Assembly (NCBI GenBank): GCA_051657985.1 | Contig: JBOFLS010000083.1 | Location: forward strand, 1,358-65,357 | From: Sphingorhabdus sp. | GTDB lineage: Bacteria > Pseudomonadota > Alphaproteobacteria > Sphingomonadales > Sphingomonadaceae | Length of the DNA stretch: 64,000 nt | Direction of reading: 5' to 3' | In this document: piece by piece, positions 1,321 to 43,525 of the stretch | Numbering within the stretch: position 1 is the stretch's first letter | Layout: each line of letters starts with the position of its first letter | Translations under genes and position numbers: made by a program | The notes under the pieces: generated by a model | The model's database searches: none | Told to the model about the DNA's origin: nothing | What the model saw: only the letters and a program-made list of their open reading frames with translations

Positions 1321-2505
1321 ATGAGCGTATCGCGTAACTTTGTATTGGCTGCAGGCGGCACTGGTGGGCATATTATTCCAGCTTATGCGCTGGGTGCCGA
1401 ATTGATACGCCGCGGGCATCAGGTCGCCCTTATTACCGACAATCGCGGCTCCGCCATTTCGGGCTGCCCGGAAGGGATGGAAGCGCATATCATGCCTGCT
1501 GGGCGCGTGGCCGGCGGCCCACGCGGCTGGCTGGCGGCAGCGCGCAACATCTGGCGCGGGCGGGCAATGGCAAAAGCGCTGTTCGCCGAACTTGATCCGA
1601 CGGCGGTGGTCGGTTTTGGCGGCTATCCGGCGCTGCCTGCGTTGCTGGCGGCCTTTTCGCATAGCGTACCAACTATCATTCATGAACAGAACGCCGTGCT
1701 CGGCCGCGTCAACCGGCTGGTCGCAGGTAAGGTCAATGCCATTGCCACAGCCTATCCCGACGTGCAGCGGGTGAAGCCCGGCCATTCTGCCAAGGTCCAT
1801 CTGGTCGGCAATCCGGTGCGTGCGGAAGTGATCGATCTGCGGGACGAGCCTTTCCCCCCTTTTATCGAGGACGGCGTGTTCCGGGTGCTTGTTACCGGGG
1901 GAAGCCAGGGCGCGTCGATCCTTTCGGAAGTGGTGCCCGATGCGCTGGCCCGTTTGCCACTGAATTTGCGGCGTCGCCTGCAGGTCACGCAGCAGTGCCG
2001 TGCTGAGGATCTGGAAAAGGTGCGCAAAACCTACGCCGATCATTCGATCCCGGCGCAGCTCGCGACCTATCTGGAAGATTTTCCGGAAAGGCTTGGTTGG
2101 TCGCATCTGGTGATCGGGCGGGCAGGAGCCTCGACCATTGCCGAACTCACTTGTGCGGGGCGCCCGGCAATCCTGATCCCACTGCCAAGCGCGATGGACA
2201 ACCATCAGGCTTTCAATGTGATCGAGATGGTGAAGGCAGGCGGTGCGCGTGCCATCCATCAAACGGCCTTTACGCCGGTCGAACTTGCCAAACAAATTCA
2301 GAAAATCGCGTTGTCCCCTGAGACTATCGAAAACGCAGCGCGTGCTGCGAAAAGCTGTGGGCGGCCCGATGCGGTGCATGATCTGGCCGATCTGATCGAA
2401 TCCTTCGGCCGCGCGCCGTTGATGCAGACATTGACCACCAAGGAAGACAAAGGCCTCAACCTGGGCGGCGCACAACCGGCGATGGCGAAGGAAGCGGCAA
2501 CATGA
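1321..2505 (+). CDS. murG: Lipid II GlcNAc transferase MurG
   Basis: GGTGGH, GFGGY, HEQN, GGSQGA and GRAGASTIAE motifs. Confidence 0.97.
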   Translation: MSVSRNFVLAAGGTGGHIIPAYALGAELIRRGHQVALITDNRGSAISGCPEGMEAHIMPAGRVAGGPRGWLAAARNIWRGRAMAKALFAELDPTAVVGFGGYPALPALLAAFSHSVPTIIHEQNAVLGRVNRLVAGKVNAIATAYPDVQRVKPGHSAKVHLVGNPVRAEVIDLRDEPFPPFIEDGVFRVLVTGGSQGASILSEVVPDALARLPLNLRRRLQVTQQCRAEDLEKVRKTYADHSIPAQLATYLEDFPERLGWSHLVIGRAGASTIAELTCAGRPAILIPLPSAMDNHQAFNVIEMVKAGGARAIHQTAFTPVELAKQIQKIALSPETIENAARAAKSCGRPDAVHDLADLIESFGRAPLMQTLTTKEDKGLNLGGAQPAMAKEAAT

Positions 2506-2684
2506 AGGCCCTTCGACAAGCGTATTATGATCGGGACACAACTCCTATGAGCACCTTTCCCTTTCCGTTCGTGTCGAGCGAAGACGAGACACCGTACAGG
2601 ACTGCGGGGCCTCTCGTCTATGCTCGAGGCGAACGGATCTGGGGGCTTAAGGCAAAACGGAAAAGCTTTAGAGGTGTCCAATGA
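2502..2684 (+). other. 60-codon open frame bridging the murG stop and the murC start, built around a palindromic repeat
   Basis: ATG 2502 overlaps the murG TGA (ATGA). Its own TGA 2682-2684 overlaps the murC ATG 2681 (ATGA). No recognisable protein family; translation is unproven. Confidence 0.3.
2565..2636. repeat. REP-like palindromic element (CCGTTCG...CGAACGG family)
   Basis: Left arm ccgttcgtgtcgagcgaagacgagac (2565-2590) pairs imperfectly with right arm ctctcgtctatgctcgaggcgaacgg (2611-2636). A truncated arm of the related 4103 family, cccttcgacaagc, lies at 2509-2521. Confidence 0.85.
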
Positions 2685-4090
2685 AAGGTGTGGGCACCGA
2701 TATCGGTACGATCCATTTCGTCGGCATTGGCGGCATCGGCATGTCGGGCATTGCCGAGGTGATGCACAATTTGGGTTATTCGGTGCAGGGCAGCGACATT
2801 GCCGAAGGCTATGTGATCGAGGGCCTGCGCAAGCACGGGATCAAAGTGATGATCGGCCATGACGCCACCAATCTGGGCGATGCGGCGGTGGTGGTAACCT
2901 CGACAGCCGTAAAGCGCGGCAACCCGGAAGTCGAGGCGGCGCTCGAAAAACGCGTGCCGTTGGTGCGCCGGGCGGAAATGCTCGCCGAGCTGATGCGGTT
3001 GAAATACACCGTTGCAGTTGCGGGCACGCATGGCAAGACCACCACGACGTCCCTGATTGCGGCAATGTTAGATGCGGGCGGGCTCGATCCCACGGTGATT
3101 AACGGTGGCATCATCAACAGTTATGGTTCGAACGCGCGGCTGGGCGACAGCGACTGGATGGTGGTTGAGGCCGACGAAAGCGATGGTAGTTTCCTTCGGC
3201 TGGACGGCACCATTGCGGTGGTTACCAATATCGATCCCGAACATCTCGATCATTATGGCGACTTCGATACCGCCAAGGCCGCCTATATCGAGTTTATCGA
3301 GAATGTGCCTTTCTATGGCGTGGCGATCCTGTGCCTCGATCATCCCGAAGTGCAGGCGATCATCCCGCGCATCCGCGATCGGCGGATACTGACCTATGGC
3401 TTTTCGGCCCAGGCCGATGTGCGTGCGGATAATGTGCGGCCCGAACTGGGCGGCAACACCTTTGACGTCGTCATTCGCGCGCGCGACGGTAGCAAGCGCG
3501 AGATCACGGACGTGTTCCTGCCCATGTCGGGCAAGCATAATGTGCAGAACGCGCTGGCCGCCATTGCCGTGGGGCTGGAACGCGGCATGACCGACGAACA
3601 GGTGCAGGCGGGCTTCGCCAAATTCGGCGGGGTCAAACGGCGTTTCACCAAGGTGGGCGAGGTCGATGGCGTGACCATCATCGACGATTATGGCCATCAC
3701 CCGGTTGAGATTCGCGCTGTGCTCTCGGCGGCGCGCGAGGGTGCCAAGGGCCGGGTGATCGCGGTTTGCCAGCCACACCGTTATTCGCGGCTCGGCAATC
3801 TGATGGACGACTTCGCGACCGCCTTCAACGATGCCGATGTCGTTTATATCAGCCCGGTCTATGCAGCGGGTGAAGCTCCGATTGAGGGTGTGTCTAGCGC
3901 CGAACTGGTTGGCAAGATCAAGCGGCGCGGTCACCATAGCGCGCAGGAAATCCAAAGTGCCGAGGCGCTGGCGAAGGAACTGGCAACGACGACGCGCGAA
4001 GGCGATCTTGTGGTCTGCTTGGGCGCGGGCGACATTACCAAATGGGCGGCCGGGTTGGCTGAGGCAATTAAAAGGGCAAAGCTTTCATGA
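2681..4090 (+). CDS. murC: UDP-N-acetylmuramate--L-alanine ligase
   Basis: [26 protein letters not shown] and DDYGHHP motifs. Confidence 0.97.
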
Positions 4091-5070
4091 CTTTTCCTTC
4101 ATCCGTTCGCCCTGAGCCTGTCGAAGGATTGTCTTGCTCTGTGTTGCAGAAAGAAGAACAGGGCTTCGACAAGCTCAGCCCGAACGGAATAAAAGAGATA
4201 AGAGGTAAACTGACGCCCGAGGCACCACTGGCCCCACTTGTATGGTTTAAATCAGGCGGCAGCGCTGAATGGCTGTTCGAGCCAAAGGATGTCGCCGATT
4301 TGCAGGCTTTCCTGCGCAATATCGATCCTGCGGTGCCTGTTATGGCGCTGGGGCTGGGATCGAACCTGATCGTCCGCGATGGTGGCGTTCCGGGCGTGGT
4401 CGTACGGCTGGGCAAGGCTTTTGCAAAGGTTGACAAAGTTGACACCAATATCCTCAACTGCGGGGGTGGGGCTTCCGGCATCCTTGTCTCCTCGACCGCG
4501 CGGGATGCGGGGATTGCAGGTATGGAATTCCTCCGCTCAATTCCCGGCACCGTAGGCGGTTTCGTTCGCATGAATGGCGGAGCCTATGGCGGCGAGGTAA
4601 AGGACATATTGGTCGATTGCGACGTAGTGATGCGCAATGGCGATTTGGTAAAGCTGTCAGTCGCCGACTTACACTACAGCTACCGTCACTCGGAACTGCC
4701 CGATGGCGCAATCGTCGTCGCGGCCCGTTTCCAAGGCCAACCCGGTGAACCCGAAGCCATACAAGCCGAAATGGACCGCATCTCCGCCAGCCGCGAGGCC
4801 TCGCAGCCGCTGCGTTCGAAAACCGGTGGCTCGACCTTCAAGAACCCCGATGGCCAGAAGGCTTGGGCATTGGTTGACGAAGCTGGATGCCGCGGGCTGC
4901 AAATCGGCGGCGCGCAGGTTTCGGAAAAGCACACCAACTTCCTGATCAACACCGGCAATGCCACCAGCGCCGAGATCGAGGAACTGGGCGAAGAAATCCG
5001 CCGCCGTGTGAAGGCGAAGTCGGGCGTCGAACTGCAATGGGAAATCCAGCGGGTGGGGGTTGCAAAGTGA
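4087..5070 (+). CDS. murB: UDP-N-acetylenolpyruvoylglucosamine reductase with a repeat-derived N-terminal insertion
   Basis: [27 protein letters not shown] and VSEKHTNF motifs. The ATG overlaps the murC stop; no other ATG precedes the conserved [12 protein letters not shown]. Confidence 0.95.
4103..4187. repeat. REP-like palindromic element inside the murB 5' coding region
   Basis: ccgttcgccctgagcctgtcgaagg (4103-4127) pairs with gcttcgacaagctcagcccgaacgg (4163-4187). It encodes VRPEPVEG...GFDKLSPNG in frame. Confidence 0.88.
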
Positions 5071-5228
5071 AGTTTCCAATATACCAGCACCGTCACCCTG
5101 AACTTGTTTCACCTTGCGGTGACTTCGTTCCAGGGTCCATTCTGCCTCTCTACCCTTCGGCCTGCGTGGCGCGATGGACCCTGAAACAAGTTCAGGGCGA
5201 CGAGTCTTGGTTGGAGTGCGCACCGTGA
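5067..5228 (+). other. 53-codon open frame bridging the murB stop and the ddl start
   Basis: GTG 5067 overlaps the murB TGA (GTGA). Its TGA 5226-5228 overlaps the ddl GTG 5225 (GTGA). It reads through the 5091-5202 repeat; translation is unproven. Confidence 0.25.
5091..5202. repeat. CGTC-tagged palindromic repeat
   Basis: cgtcaccctgaacttgtttca[ccttgcggtgacttcgttc]cagggtccat pairs with atggaccctgaaacaagttcagggcgacg (5174-5202). The left arm is interrupted by a short insert carrying its own tcacc/ggtga hairpin. Confidence 0.88.
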
Positions 5229-6148
5229 CCAAACCTATCCACGTCGCAGTCCTTATGGGTGGTTGGTCGAACGAGCGTCCTGTCTCACTGATGAGCGGTA
5301 ATGGCGTGGCCGATGCGCTTGAGCGCGTCGGCTATAAGGTCAGCCGGGTCGATATGGACCGCAATGTGGCAGTCTCGCTGGCCGAGCTGAAACCCGATGT
5401 CGTCTTCAACGCGCTCCATGGCGTACCCGGTGAGGATGGCAGCGTGCAGGGTATGCTCGACCTGATGGGGATCAAATATACCCATAGCGGCATGGTCACC
5501 TCGGTGATCGCGATCGACAAGGAACTGACCAAGCAAAGGCTGGTGCCCGCCGGTATCCCAATGCCCAAGGGGACGATGGTTCAGAGCGAAAGCCTGTATG
5601 CGGGCGATCCGCTGCCGCGGCCCTATGTGTTGAAACCGGTCAACGAGGGCAGCTCGGTCGGTGTCGCCATCGTCAAGGCCGACAGCAATTATGGCGATCC
5701 GATTTCCCGTAACGCCAAGGGGCCGTGGCAGGAATTTGACGAACTGCTCGCCGAACCCTTCATCAAGGGCCGCGAGCTGACTGTTGCCGTGCTTGGCGGG
5801 CAGGCGCTATGCGTGACCGAACTCAAGCCCAAAAGCGGCTTTTATGATTTCGATGCCAAATATACCGACGGCCTGACCGATCATATCTGCCCTGCCGAAA
5901 TCCCCAAGGATATCGAAGACTATATGATGGAGCTGGCGCTGAAGGCGCACCGGCTGCTCGGCTGCAAGGGTGCATCGCGCACCGATTTTCGCTGGGACGA
6001 CGAACTGGGCCGCGACGGCGTATTCGTGCTCGAAACCAACACCCAGCCGGGCATGACTCCCTTGAGCCTTGTACCCGAACAGGCCAAGAAGATGGGGATC
6101 AGCTATGAACAGCTGGTCGACATTCTGGTGAAGGAGGCGCTGGCATGA
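5225..6148 (+). CDS. ddl: D-alanine--D-alanine ligase
   Basis: LMGGWSNERPVSL, ALHGVPGEDG, KPVNEGSSVG, YDFDAKY and ETNTQPG motifs. Start placed at GTG 5225 (GGAG at 5213-5216); the upstream ATG 5174 lies inside the repeat. Confidence 0.95.
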   Translation: MTKPIHVAVLMGGWSNERPVSLMSGNGVADALERVGYKVSRVDMDRNVAVSLAELKPDVVFNALHGVPGEDGSVQGMLDLMGIKYTHSGMVTSVIAIDKELTKQRLVPAGIPMPKGTMVQSESLYAGDPLPRPYVLKPVNEGSSVGVAIVKADSNYGDPISRNAKGPWQEFDELLAEPFIKGRELTVAVLGGQALCVTELKPKSGFYDFDAKYTDGLTDHICPAEIPKDIEDYMMELALKAHRLLGCKGASRTDFRWDDELGRDGVFVLETNTQPGMTPLSLVPEQAKKMGISYEQLVDILVKEALA

Positions 6149-15715: not shown

Positions 15716-15844
15716 CCCCTCCCCTTCAGGGGGGGGGCAGTGAGACTTAGCGCCGTCAGGCGCTTAGTCGCAGCGGGGTGGGGTCTTTCACCGCTGCACT
15801 ATGCGGACAGACCCCACCCCAACCCCGCCCCTGAAGGGGAGGGG
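15716..15844. repeat. Nested palindromic REP-like element between gcvH and gcvPA
   Basis: Outer arms cccctccccttcagggggggg / ccccgcccctgaaggggagggg, inner ggggtggggtct / agaccccacccc, and side hairpin gacttagcgcc-gtca-ggcgcttagtc. Confidence 0.88.
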
Positions 15845-42164: not shown

Positions 42165-43525
42165 GGTGCGGTAATTCTGCCTGCAATGGCGCTGGCCGCA
42201 ACAACCTCGGGGCTGGCAATGTGCGTGCGAATGCCCGGACCCTGTCGTCCTTCGAAATTGCGGTTGGTGGAGGAGATTACCCGGCTTCCGGGCGGGAAAC
42301 TTTCACCGCCTGCATAGAAGCACAGCGAGCAGCCGCTTTCCCGCCATTGAAAGCCGGCATCGATGAAAATACGATCCAGCCCTTCGGATTCTGCCGCGCG
42401 CTTGACCGCAGTGGAGCCGGGGACAACCAACGCCAAAATGCCTTCCGCGATCTTCCTGCCCTTCACGATTTCAGCCGCACGGCGAAGATCGGAAACGCGG
42501 CTGTTGGTGCAACTGCCGATAAAAGCGACGTCGATCGGCAACCCGGCAAGGGGCTGACCGGCTTGCAAACCCATATATTCAACAGCGCGAAGGACTGTCC
42601 CTTTGGGGACAGTCCCCAAAGGGACAGTCCCTAAGATTGGGATGCTTTGTTCGGGCGAGGTGCCCCAACTGACCATAGGCGTAAGCTTACCGGCATCGAT
42701 GACAATTTCCCGATCGAAAACGGCGTCTTCATCGGTAGCAAGATCGTCCCAGTCGGGCAGGGGGTCGGGTGCGTAACGTCGACCTTTGAGATAAGCGAGG
42801 GTCTTGGCATCGGGCGCGATGATCCCGCTAAAGGCGCTGAATTCGGTCGCCATATTGCACAGCGTCATCCGTGCTTCCATGTCTAGCGCCCGGACGGCTC
42901 CGCCTGCGAACTCAAGAATATGTCCCTTGCCGCCACCTGCACCTTCTTGTGCAATCAGCGTCAGGATCATATCCTTGGCGGTGACGCCCCCGGGCAGAAT
43001 ACCATCGAACATGACACGCATCGTTCTTGGCTTTGTCACCCGCAACGTCCCGGTCGCCATCGCATGTTCGGCCTCAGACGACCCAATCCCCCAGGCAAGC
43101 GCGCCAAACGCACCTTGCGTACACGTATGACTGTCGGGCGCAATCAGGGTAAGCCCTGGTAACACGATGCCCAGTTCGGGCGAAATGACATGGGTTATGC
43201 CCTGATCGGGATCGTTCACATCGAACAAAGTGATCCCCGCCTGATGGCAGGCGGCGCGGGTTTCGGTAATAAAGGCTTCGCCGCCCTGCATCGGGGTATC
43301 ATCCCCGCGACCGGGCCTGGTATCGACGATATGATCCATGACGGCAAAGACCCGCGCCGGATCGACGACCTTGCGACCGGCTTCCGCCATCGATTTCAGC
43401 GCCGCCGCCCCGGTGCGTTCGTGTAGGAAGATGCGGTCGATCGCGATCAACGCATTTTCCTGCCCCAGGTCGGCAACGACATGGGTATCCCAGATTTTAT
43501 CGAAAAGGGTGCGCGGAAAATTCAG
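42161..43525 (-). CDS. LeuC-like [4Fe-4S] hydratase/isomerase large subunit, probably CTG-initiated
   Basis: DSHTCT.GAFG, FIGSCTN, GCSLC and STNRNFEGRQG motifs. The frame extends upstream of the ORF-track start through conserved PRTLFDKIWDTHVV. The only plausible start is CTG 43525, 6 nt after GGAGG. Confidence 0.88.
   Translation of the reverse strand: MNFPRTLFDKIWDTHVVADLGQENALIAIDRIFLHERTGAAALKSMAEAGRKVVDPARVFAVMDHIVDTRPGRGDDTPMQGGEAFITETRAACHQAGITLFDVNDPDQGITHVISPELGIVLPGLTLIAPDSHTCTQGAFGALAWGIGSSEAEHAMATGTLRVTKPRTMRVMFDGILPGGVTAKDMILTLIAQEGAGGGKGHILEFAGGAVRALDMEARMTLCNMATEFSAFSGIIAPDAKTLAYLKGRRYAPDPLPDWDDLATDEDAVFDREIVIDAGKLTPMVSWGTSPEQSIPILGTVPLGTVPKGTVLRAVEYMGLQAGQPLAGLPIDVAFIGSCTNSRVSDLRRAAEIVKGRKIAEGILALVVPGSTAVKRAAESEGLDRIFIDAGFQWRESGCSLCFYAGGESFPPGSRVISSTNRNFEGRQGPGIRTHIASPEVVAASAIAGRITAP
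42592..42630. repeat. Perfect 39-nt palindrome inside the LeuC-like gene
   Basis: ggactgtccctttggggac-a-gtccccaaagggacagtcc has 19-bp perfect arms. It encodes the GTVP-L-GTVP-K-GTV triplication. Confidence 0.9.

Follow-up and report, generated by a model that had tools for sequence, protein, structure and literature searches.

How do strongly structured palindromic repeats settle inside an essential operon whose genes are normally joined by overlaps of a few nucleotides? The question is raised by the division and cell wall (dcw) gene cluster of Sphingorhabdus sp., which opens the 64,000-nt stretch of DNA analysed here (contig JBOFLS010000083.1, positions 1,358 to 65,357; hereafter the window) and runs from the window start in the order ftsW (94-1317), murG, murC, murB, ddl, ftsQ, ftsA, and ftsZ. 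Three palindromic elements, E1, E2, and E3, occupy the murG/murC, murC/murB, and murB/ddl junctions, respectively. A preliminary description of this DNA had reported inverted repeats at these three consecutive junctions, each crossed by a stop-free frame that begins at a start codon overlapping the upstream stop, and had described the neighbouring junctions as clean. These observations were confirmed: the repeats lie within 1 nt of the coordinates first given, bridging frames from overlapping starts are present at all three junctions, and ftsW/murG (3-nt gap), ddl/ftsQ (ATGA), and ftsQ/ftsA (TGATG) contain no insert. Two of the bridging frames are separate short open reading frames (ORFs) overlapping both neighbouring genes, termed relays here, and the third is an in-frame fusion to the downstream gene.

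The explanation that we consider likely is that elements resembling repetitive extragenic palindromes (REPs) were inserted at 4-nt stop/start overlaps, and that selection keeps the inserts that preserve uninterrupted coupled translation. In the proposed course of events, a dispersed palindrome would enter a junction with a 4-nt overlap and leave a relic downstream start in the upstream stop and a relic upstream TGA in the new downstream start. Two kinds of insertion would survive: those in which the relic start opens a stop-free frame ending exactly on the relic TGA (a relay, as at murG/murC and murB/ddl), and those in which the relic start reads straight into the downstream protein (an in-frame fusion, as at murC/murB). 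A ribosome finishing murG would restart at ATG 2502, melt the hairpin over 60 codons, stop on the TGA inside the ATGA at 2681, and restart on murC; the same would happen at murB/ddl, and the operon would stay under one unbroken translation train.

Comparison with 23 genomes of the genus revealed the ancestral state of these junctions. murG/murC is a -4 overlap (once -1) in all but one of the genomes, murB/ddl has a short overlap in all but three, and murC/murB in the relatives has an ATGA overlap, after which comes a MurB leader of 8 codons. The two closest relatives, whose MurC proteins are 96% and 95% identical to that of the window, lack all three inserts. Alignment with insert-free relatives confirmed that the three junctions were ancestrally 4-nt overlaps, into which +179, +87, and +158 nt have been inserted in the window. 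At the expanded junctions, the upstream stop still contains the old downstream start, and the new downstream start still contains the old upstream TGA; the -4 overlaps of the window are ATGA at 2502, 2681, and 4087 and GTGA at 5067 and 5225. E2 (87 nt, 29 codons) follows MurB codon 5, upstream of the FAD-binding domain, and its length is a multiple of three without a stop.

The inserts at murG/murC and murB/ddl exceed their hairpins (179 and 158 nt vs 74 and 112 nt) and are bracketed by ATGAAGG...ATGAAAGG and GTGA...GTGA, respectively. The murG/murC insert is composite, consisting of a truncated E2-type arm, E1, and a right part homologous to the insert found at the same junction in genome G017 (Table 1). 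That 56-nt insert is itself a 19-codon relay, and the difference between the two inserts (179 - 56 = 123 nt) is a multiple of three; insertion at murG/murC took more than one step. At murB/ddl, genome G018 has a homologous E3-type insert of 134 nt, compared with 158 nt in the window (a difference of 24 nt, with approximately 79% identity over aligned columns), and this insert forms a perfect GTGA...TTGA relay. Two possible sources of the flanks between hairpin and bracket were rejected: a long target-site duplication (the flanks showed no similarity to neighbouring gene ends) and, for the left flank, the old N-terminus of the downstream gene (the GatA, MurC, and Ddl N-termini are full-length).

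Table 1. Coordinates of the genes, relay ORFs, and palindromic elements between murG and ddl in the window
Feature	Position	Strand	Remarks
murG	1321..2505	+	TGA stop 2503-2505 overlapped by ATG 2502
Relay ORF 1	2502..2684	+	60 codons; relic murC start (ATGA) to TGA overlapping murC ATG 2681; no Pfam match
Truncated E2-type arm (CCCTTCGACAAGC)	2509..2521	+	14-nt exact match to ~30 E2-type arms; remnant of older murG/murC insertion
E1, 74-nt palindromic repeat	2564..2637	+	Termini TCCGTTCG...CGAACGGA
Right part of older spacer	2638..2680	+	Homologous to the 56-nt murG/murC insert of G017; murC Shine-Dalgarno GAGG 2671-2674
murC	2681..4090	+	Stop overlapped by ATG 4087
murB	4087..5070	+	Start is the ATG overlapping the murC stop; E2 encodes codons 6-34; FAD_binding_4 from residue 63
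E2, 87-nt (29-codon) palindromic repeat	4102..4188	+	In frame in MurB N-terminus
Relay ORF 3	5067..5228	+	53 codons; GTG 5067 (GTGA with murB stop) to TGA 5226-5228 overlapping ddl GTG 5225
E3, 112-nt CGTC...GACG-tagged nested palindrome	5091..5202	+	
ddl	5225..6148	+	Start position GTG 5225 is conserved in relatives; GGAG 5213-5216

The hairpins lie 11-58 nt past the upstream stop. murC and ddl each have their own Shine-Dalgarno motif outside the hairpin, so occlusion of the ribosome binding site by the hairpin is not the reason for the arrangement. In-frame starts at GTG 5216 or ATG 5174 may be alternatives for ddl. Scanning the + strand from 2300 to 5500 revealed no promoter-like or terminator-like sites, including intrinsic terminators.

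All three elements are dispersed repeats. The arms of E1 (2564-2589 and 2612-2637) are 26 nt long and 85% complementary, those of E2 (4102-4143 and 4147-4188) are 42 nt long and 74% complementary, and those of E3 (5091-5111 and 5182-5202) are 21 nt long and 95% complementary. Searches with blastn-short against the same genome returned 48, 133, and 62 high-scoring segment pairs for E1, E2, and E3, respectively, and the copies of E1 have common sharp ends and unrelated flanks. RNA folding gave -48, -45, and -59 kcal/mol (z = -7.1, -5.7, and -8.4), with 0 of 200 shuffled sequences folding as well. With tens of copies each, defined ends, unrelated flanks, and a stable stem-loop, E1, E2, and E3 have the properties of REP-like dispersed palindromes, although their units are composite hairpins of 74-112 nt as opposed to 20-40 bp for single REPs. 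The preliminary description had regarded the three elements as different and had pointed to CGTC-tagged REP families of Alphaproteobacteria. E1 and E2 are not wholly distinct, since they share the termini TCCGTTCG...CGAACGGA; the CGTC...GACG tag is present in E3 only, and E1 and E2 begin with TCCGTTCG. [quoted passage not shown] Rfam contained no family for the elements and gave only sub-threshold hairpin look-alikes. A transposase of the REP-associated tyrosine transposase type (Y1_Tnp, PF01797) had no match in the draft genome from which the window comes (99.98% complete), although control genomes were matched.

This draft genome (3.48 Mb, 282 contigs, 56.7% G+C), which was placed in an uncultured Sphingomonadales genus, was the sole whole genome analysed. 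Its gene set comprised 3,110 genes (85% coding) from a simple home-made Markov caller, and its repeat catalogue, the union of two imperfect methods and incomplete, contained 347 repeated hairpins: 192 between co-directional genes, 71 at convergent and 22 at divergent junctions, 26 within genes, and 36 at contig ends. A 12-mer catalogue, in which everything merged, was dropped.

Plain openness proved to be common. At least one frame was open in 89% of elements in the sense direction and in 79% in the antisense direction, with a per-frame openness of 0.33-0.41, and across 160 co-directional junctions the whole spacer was open in at least one frame at similar rates in sense (42%) and antisense (44%). 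These values, together with an open antisense frame at each window junction, are what would be expected if stop-poor palindromes yielded open frames by chance and three bridged junctions in a row were luck. An open frame as such, which had been taken to distinguish the three junctions, does not do so. Because antisense frames are not independent of sense frames in palindromes, frame-specific and context controls were used instead.

The difference appeared when one particular frame was followed. We defined the overlap frame as the fixed frame, relative to the upstream stop, of any start that overlaps this stop (NTGA or TGATG). It was open across the whole spacer 41 times, and the other two frames 24 and 20 times. 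Among 153 element-bearing junctions, the overlap frame was open at 30 of the 77 with an overlapping start and at 7 of the 76 without one (odds ratio [OR] 6.3, p = 2e-5), while the other two frames showed no association with an overlapping start (OR 1.2-1.3, p = 0.8). The genome-wide count thus came out negative for openness in general and positive for the specific frame. With an overlapping start, the overlap frame was open at 21 of 36 junctions whose gap was 1 mod 3, the length class in which this frame ends on the TGA inside a downstream NTGA, and at 5 of 21 and 4 of 20 in the other length classes; element-free junctions of the 1 mod 3 class were open in 22 of 97 cases, despite their shorter spacers. 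The association persisted in three gene sets after removal of the dcw junctions (OR 4.8-5.7, p = 5e-4 to 6e-5). Perfect double-overlap relays were found at 12-14 of approximately 150 element junctions vs 15-16 of approximately 770 element-free junctions, and their locations include nuoB/C, nuoG/H, nuoJ/K, nuoK/L, gatC/A, and a position 5' of a homocysteine methyltransferase gene. At C66:818-1369, the consecutive nuoJ/K and nuoK/L junctions are each relayed through a different repeat family, mirroring the dcw cluster.

We also simulated insertions, placing the genome's own elements with 0-50 nt of native flanks in either orientation between two copies of NTGA. A relay or in-frame fusion resulted in 10-27% of trials, so three of three by chance would be expected in approximately 0.1-2% of cases. 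In addition, the open frame in the window is always the one that leads from the upstream stop to the downstream start. The comparison with relatives carries much more weight than this simulation.

In relatives, we traced chains of -4/-1 stop/start overlaps, starting at the upstream stop and ending in the downstream gene. In Sphingomonadales dcw loci (L001-L065), the chain was complete at 28 of 30 expanded junctions, the two misses being a -8 overlap and a longer overlap, and all three junctions are bridged in Sphingomonas longa and S. floccifaciens, as in the window. In other Alphaproteobacteria, the chain was found at only 6 of 32 expanded dcw junctions (Fisher p = 1e-9 vs Sphingomonadales), so G+C-rich spacers do not account for it. 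In the genus itself, relays were present in 5/5 expansions of nuoJ/K (ancestrally -4), 2/2 of nuoK/L (ancestrally +5 to +9 nt), and 6/6 of gatC/A (ancestrally -1), so that the chain was kept in 13/13 cases. The six gatC/A inserts belong to at least three unrelated repeat families, which excludes a single inherited event, and all of them are relays with gaps of 127, 103, 106, 124, 103, and 115 nt, every one 1 mod 3. Across the in-genus relay-type junctions, 16 of 17 gaps were 1 mod 3 (p = 3e-7). A seeming exception outside the genus, nuoJ/K of G030, has a relay that begins 1 nt past the stop and ends on the nuoK ATGA. Non-repeat DNA follows the same relay rule at nuoJ/K, murC/murB, and murB/ddl in relatives. 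Taken with the frame-specific association and the simulation, the retained chains and gap lengths make chance a very improbable explanation.

The junctions thus combine ancestral overlaps, relic starts and stops, and a strong, non-random excess of relays and fusions in the genome and its relatives. From these patterns we infer that the excess is due to purifying selection at coupled junctions, that is, to the survivorship of permissive insertions, and that the selected property would be continued translational coupling, the avoidance of a ribosome-free structured stretch, or both. The preliminary description had named preserved coupling and the avoidance of Rho polarity; reinitiation, Rho polarity, mRNA processing, and stoichiometric coupling may each be the physiological reason.

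A mechanistic origin was weighed against this reading. The elements could target overlaps and bring their own frame, perhaps with a Shine-Dalgarno flank, so that relays would arise at insertion, as proposed for the mycobacterial repeats discussed below. The same 4-nt sites have been hit independently, by at least three unrelated families at gatC/A and by several at nuoJ/K and murB/ddl; approximately 30 bridged junctions, set against only approximately 324 existing overlap junctions, are by our estimate far above the ordinary intergenic insertion density; and left flanks of approximately 20-27 nt and purine-rich right flanks of approximately 10-28 nt recur. However, flanks are not conserved within families and vary in length, and at convergent junctions no particular phase between element and stop is favoured, which argues against a purely mechanistic origin of the frames. 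Unrelated families follow the same rule, as does DNA that is not a repeat (at nuoJ/K an ORF of 30-35 aa, at murB/ddl a gene of approximately 165 aa), the murG/murC insert was enlarged stepwise with the frame kept, and the Y1 transposase gene was not found in the genome. We therefore regard insertion alone as a rather unlikely source of the relays. That different families have repeatedly and independently used the same 4-nt sites nevertheless suggests an additional preference for insertion beside stop codons, possibly helping selection.

It is also conceivable, though we think it improbable, that translation is needed only to remove the hairpin (with respect to mRNA decay, processing, or Rho access) and not for reinitiation, the exact overlaps being relics. 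The relay start and stop are leftovers of the ancestral ATGA, so the overlaps need no selection themselves; the downstream genes have their own Shine-Dalgarno motifs, and the hairpins are very stable. Coverage alone, however, predicts frames that end anywhere past the hairpin, whereas nearly all in-genus relay gaps were 1 mod 3 and, with a relic start, the overlap frame was open mainly in this length class. The mod-3 rule at the 3' end of the relays argues for delivery and reinitiation, or at least against out-of-frame ribosomes crossing the downstream start.

Functional small proteins encoded by the bridging ORFs, with the repeats incidental, are the explanation to which we give the least credence. 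What appear to be real small genes do occupy such positions in relatives (64-66 aa at murC/murB and 30-35 aa at nuoJ/nuoK). The relay peptides of the window, on the other hand, lack Pfam matches and are mostly repeat-encoded, and relay peptides at one and the same junction differ completely between genomes and are absent from the closest relatives.

Several points weigh against the reading based on selection for coupled translation. The Shine-Dalgarno motifs of murC and ddl sit 3' of the hairpins, making independent initiation possible. Approximately three quarters of the element-bearing co-directional junctions genome-wide are unbridged; the proposal in the preliminary description that insertions persist only under translation accordingly applies to formerly coupled junctions and not to all same-strand junctions. 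The own-genome gene calls rest on a home-made caller, the relatives' junctions are partly non-independent events, and the open frame found in antisense at the three window junctions has already been mentioned. Nor does the reading account for the 20-60 nt non-repeat flanks of the hairpins inside the inserts; at murG/murC they are partly the remains of older insertions.

A broader and more tentative proposal is that the coupled overlaps of Sphingomonadales (dcw, nuo, and gatCAB) could be recurrent landing sites at which landed DNA survives only as a relay cassette, the repeats being perhaps adapted to such sites or targeting them. Such a cassette might consist, in an equally provisional outline, of a relic start, a stop-free frame with a 1 mod 3 gap, a Shine-Dalgarno-like tail, and a relic stop.

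The closest precedent is provided by mycobacterial interspersed repetitive units (MIRUs). In the passages that PMC12548453 (referring to Supply et al. 1997) and PMC3184786 devote to them, MIRUs are repeats in mycobacterial operons with a small ORF that overlaps the stop and start of the neighbouring genes, and they are read as elements that can insert while, owing to translational coupling, disturbing expression only minimally. Like MIRUs, the elements described here are short dispersed repeats inside operons, between co-directional genes, with a same-strand ORF and -4 spacing at both ends. MIRUs, however, form a single family with units of 40-100 bp that often occur as tandem arrays (variable-number tandem repeats), with an element-borne ORF and insertion at start codons, whereas the rule found here extends to single units from a number of unrelated families with strong palindromes (-45 to -59 kcal/mol), and to non-repeat DNA as well. 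In addition, the relay here includes non-repeat flanks, the evidence is mainly for a selective filter, and the host is a Sphingomonadales alphaproteobacterium. Judged by analogy, the resemblance to MIRUs is one of way of working and not of family membership. Since equivalent accounts of the mycobacterial repeats exist, this type of idea has been put forward before; what is new is that, in Alphaproteobacteria, a MIRU-like relay rule is followed by several unrelated palindromic families with strong structure and is near-universal at coupled junctions.

Rickettsia palindromic elements (RPEs) offer a second comparison: as summarised in the relevant parts of PMC10969869 and PMC3733652 (after Ogata et al. 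2000), these palindromic repeats lie in frame in protein genes of an alphaproteobacterium and are translated as an extra peptide. E2, with its 29 in-frame codons in the MurB N-terminus, is likened to them by arrangement, not sequence. RPEs are found within genes, are approximately 150 bp long, and encode a conserved peptide, whereas two of the three cases in the window are separate relay ORFs between genes. The E3 tag recalls the high-copy palindromes ending in CGTC that the sections of Di Nocera et al. 2013 (PMC3733652) on such repeats report from S. wittichii, S. alaskensis, and E. litoralis. These CGTC REPs are located mostly between unidirectional or convergent ORFs, near the upstream stop; some are inside ORFs, often N-terminal, and many of the N-terminal cases were treated as probably extragenic (PMC3733652, same sections). 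Intragenic REPs are known from several species, including Sphingomonadales with CGTC REPs, according to the portions of PMC3733652 and PMC10969869 that deal with them. Relay ORFs and stop/start overlaps are not described for CGTC REPs in those sections of PMC3733652.

Coupling by termination and reinitiation is known from ATGA or TGATG overlaps of co-directional genes, often encoding subunits of a complex, and short upstream ORFs that merely deliver the ribosome have been discussed (PMC6728339, PMC10666635, PMC12548453). Those studies concern native gene pairs, whereas here two overlaps are chained across an insert with strong structure. In the work of Liang, Rudd and Deutscher from 2015, a REP hairpin located a few nucleotides past a stop reportedly interacts with the terminating ribosome, and the effect is said to be stalling and lower expression of the upstream gene. 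The hairpins in the window, by comparison, are 11-58 nt from the stop, and the proposal is that ribosomes translate through them. A full-text literature search for REPs or MITEs linked with translational coupling returned nothing relevant.

If the relay frames are needed, these natural insertions would test the dependence of bacteria on unbroken coupling in essential operons for cell-wall synthesis, complex I, and tRNA amidotransferase. They would account for the harmless spread of selfish repeats into those junctions of a genome that are under the tightest constraint. Short ORFs of this kind should then not be dropped from annotation as spurious, nor should internal starts be assigned to genes such as murB, and the rule of 1 mod 3 without a stop would be a sequence-only marker of coupled gene pairs. 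Should the coupled overlaps be landing sites as well, the arrangement would be a general, multi-family counterpart of MIRUs and a natural mutagenesis experiment showing strong selection on uninterrupted coupled translation.

Further repeats were noted elsewhere in the window and genome. A 129-nt repeat of the CCCCTCCCCTTCAGGGG... family separates two co-directional genes at window positions 15716-15844. A TTG that overlaps the stop of the first gene shares the frame of the second and reads through the element without a stop, making this a fusion-type case; the second gene has an ATG of its own as well, with AAAGGAAG shortly before it. At 42592-42630, the window contains a near-perfect 39-nt palindrome, GGACTGTCCCTTTGGGGACAGTCCCCAAAGGGACAGTCC, from another multi-copy family, a copy of which forms a relay at C240:1785-1828 of the same genome. 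The catalogue has 36 repeats at contig edges, and many E2-type arms are less than 100 nt from contig ends; the fragmentation into 282 contigs was probably caused largely by these repeats. Convergent junctions were considered as a control for ORFs starting at stops and rejected as confounded by different stop-codon usage: the stops of flanking genes were 42% TAG and 25% TGA with a repeat, and 24% TAG and 43% TGA without one. One possibility is that TAG stops come with the elements or their target sites, or are favoured by them.

Three non-repeat ORFs were found at expanded junctions of relatives. Between nuoJ and nuoK, L116 (G023) and L131 (G007) have a hydrophobic ORF of 30-35 aa (MMAFSIIHILILLALVALPILGIIVAIKMFGKGKK) in the overlap position, without a Pfam match, which may be a small membrane protein. 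Between murC and murB, L035, L044, and L064 (Sphingomonas spp.) share a conserved ORF of 64-66 aa (M.DW...MQR.LL.AQKAQMD.AQK.LDAG...AEANL.AW..W...WGW) with ATGA/GTGA overlaps on both sides and no Pfam match; it has the look of a genuine small gene belonging to the dcw cluster. Between murB and ddl, L004 (G017), L022 (G011), and L059 contain an inserted gene of approximately 165 aa (motifs FSYSIGF, FGL, FQLVWP, and GLFPWE.GC) whose start overlaps the murB stop; in L004 it is divided into two ORFs, the stop of the first still overlapping the start of the second. Finally, murG is approximately 78 nt longer, in frame, in L015, L018, and L019, and in two relatives (L005 and L023) stretches of 36 and 69 nt are duplicated in tandem and in frame at the murB C-terminus.

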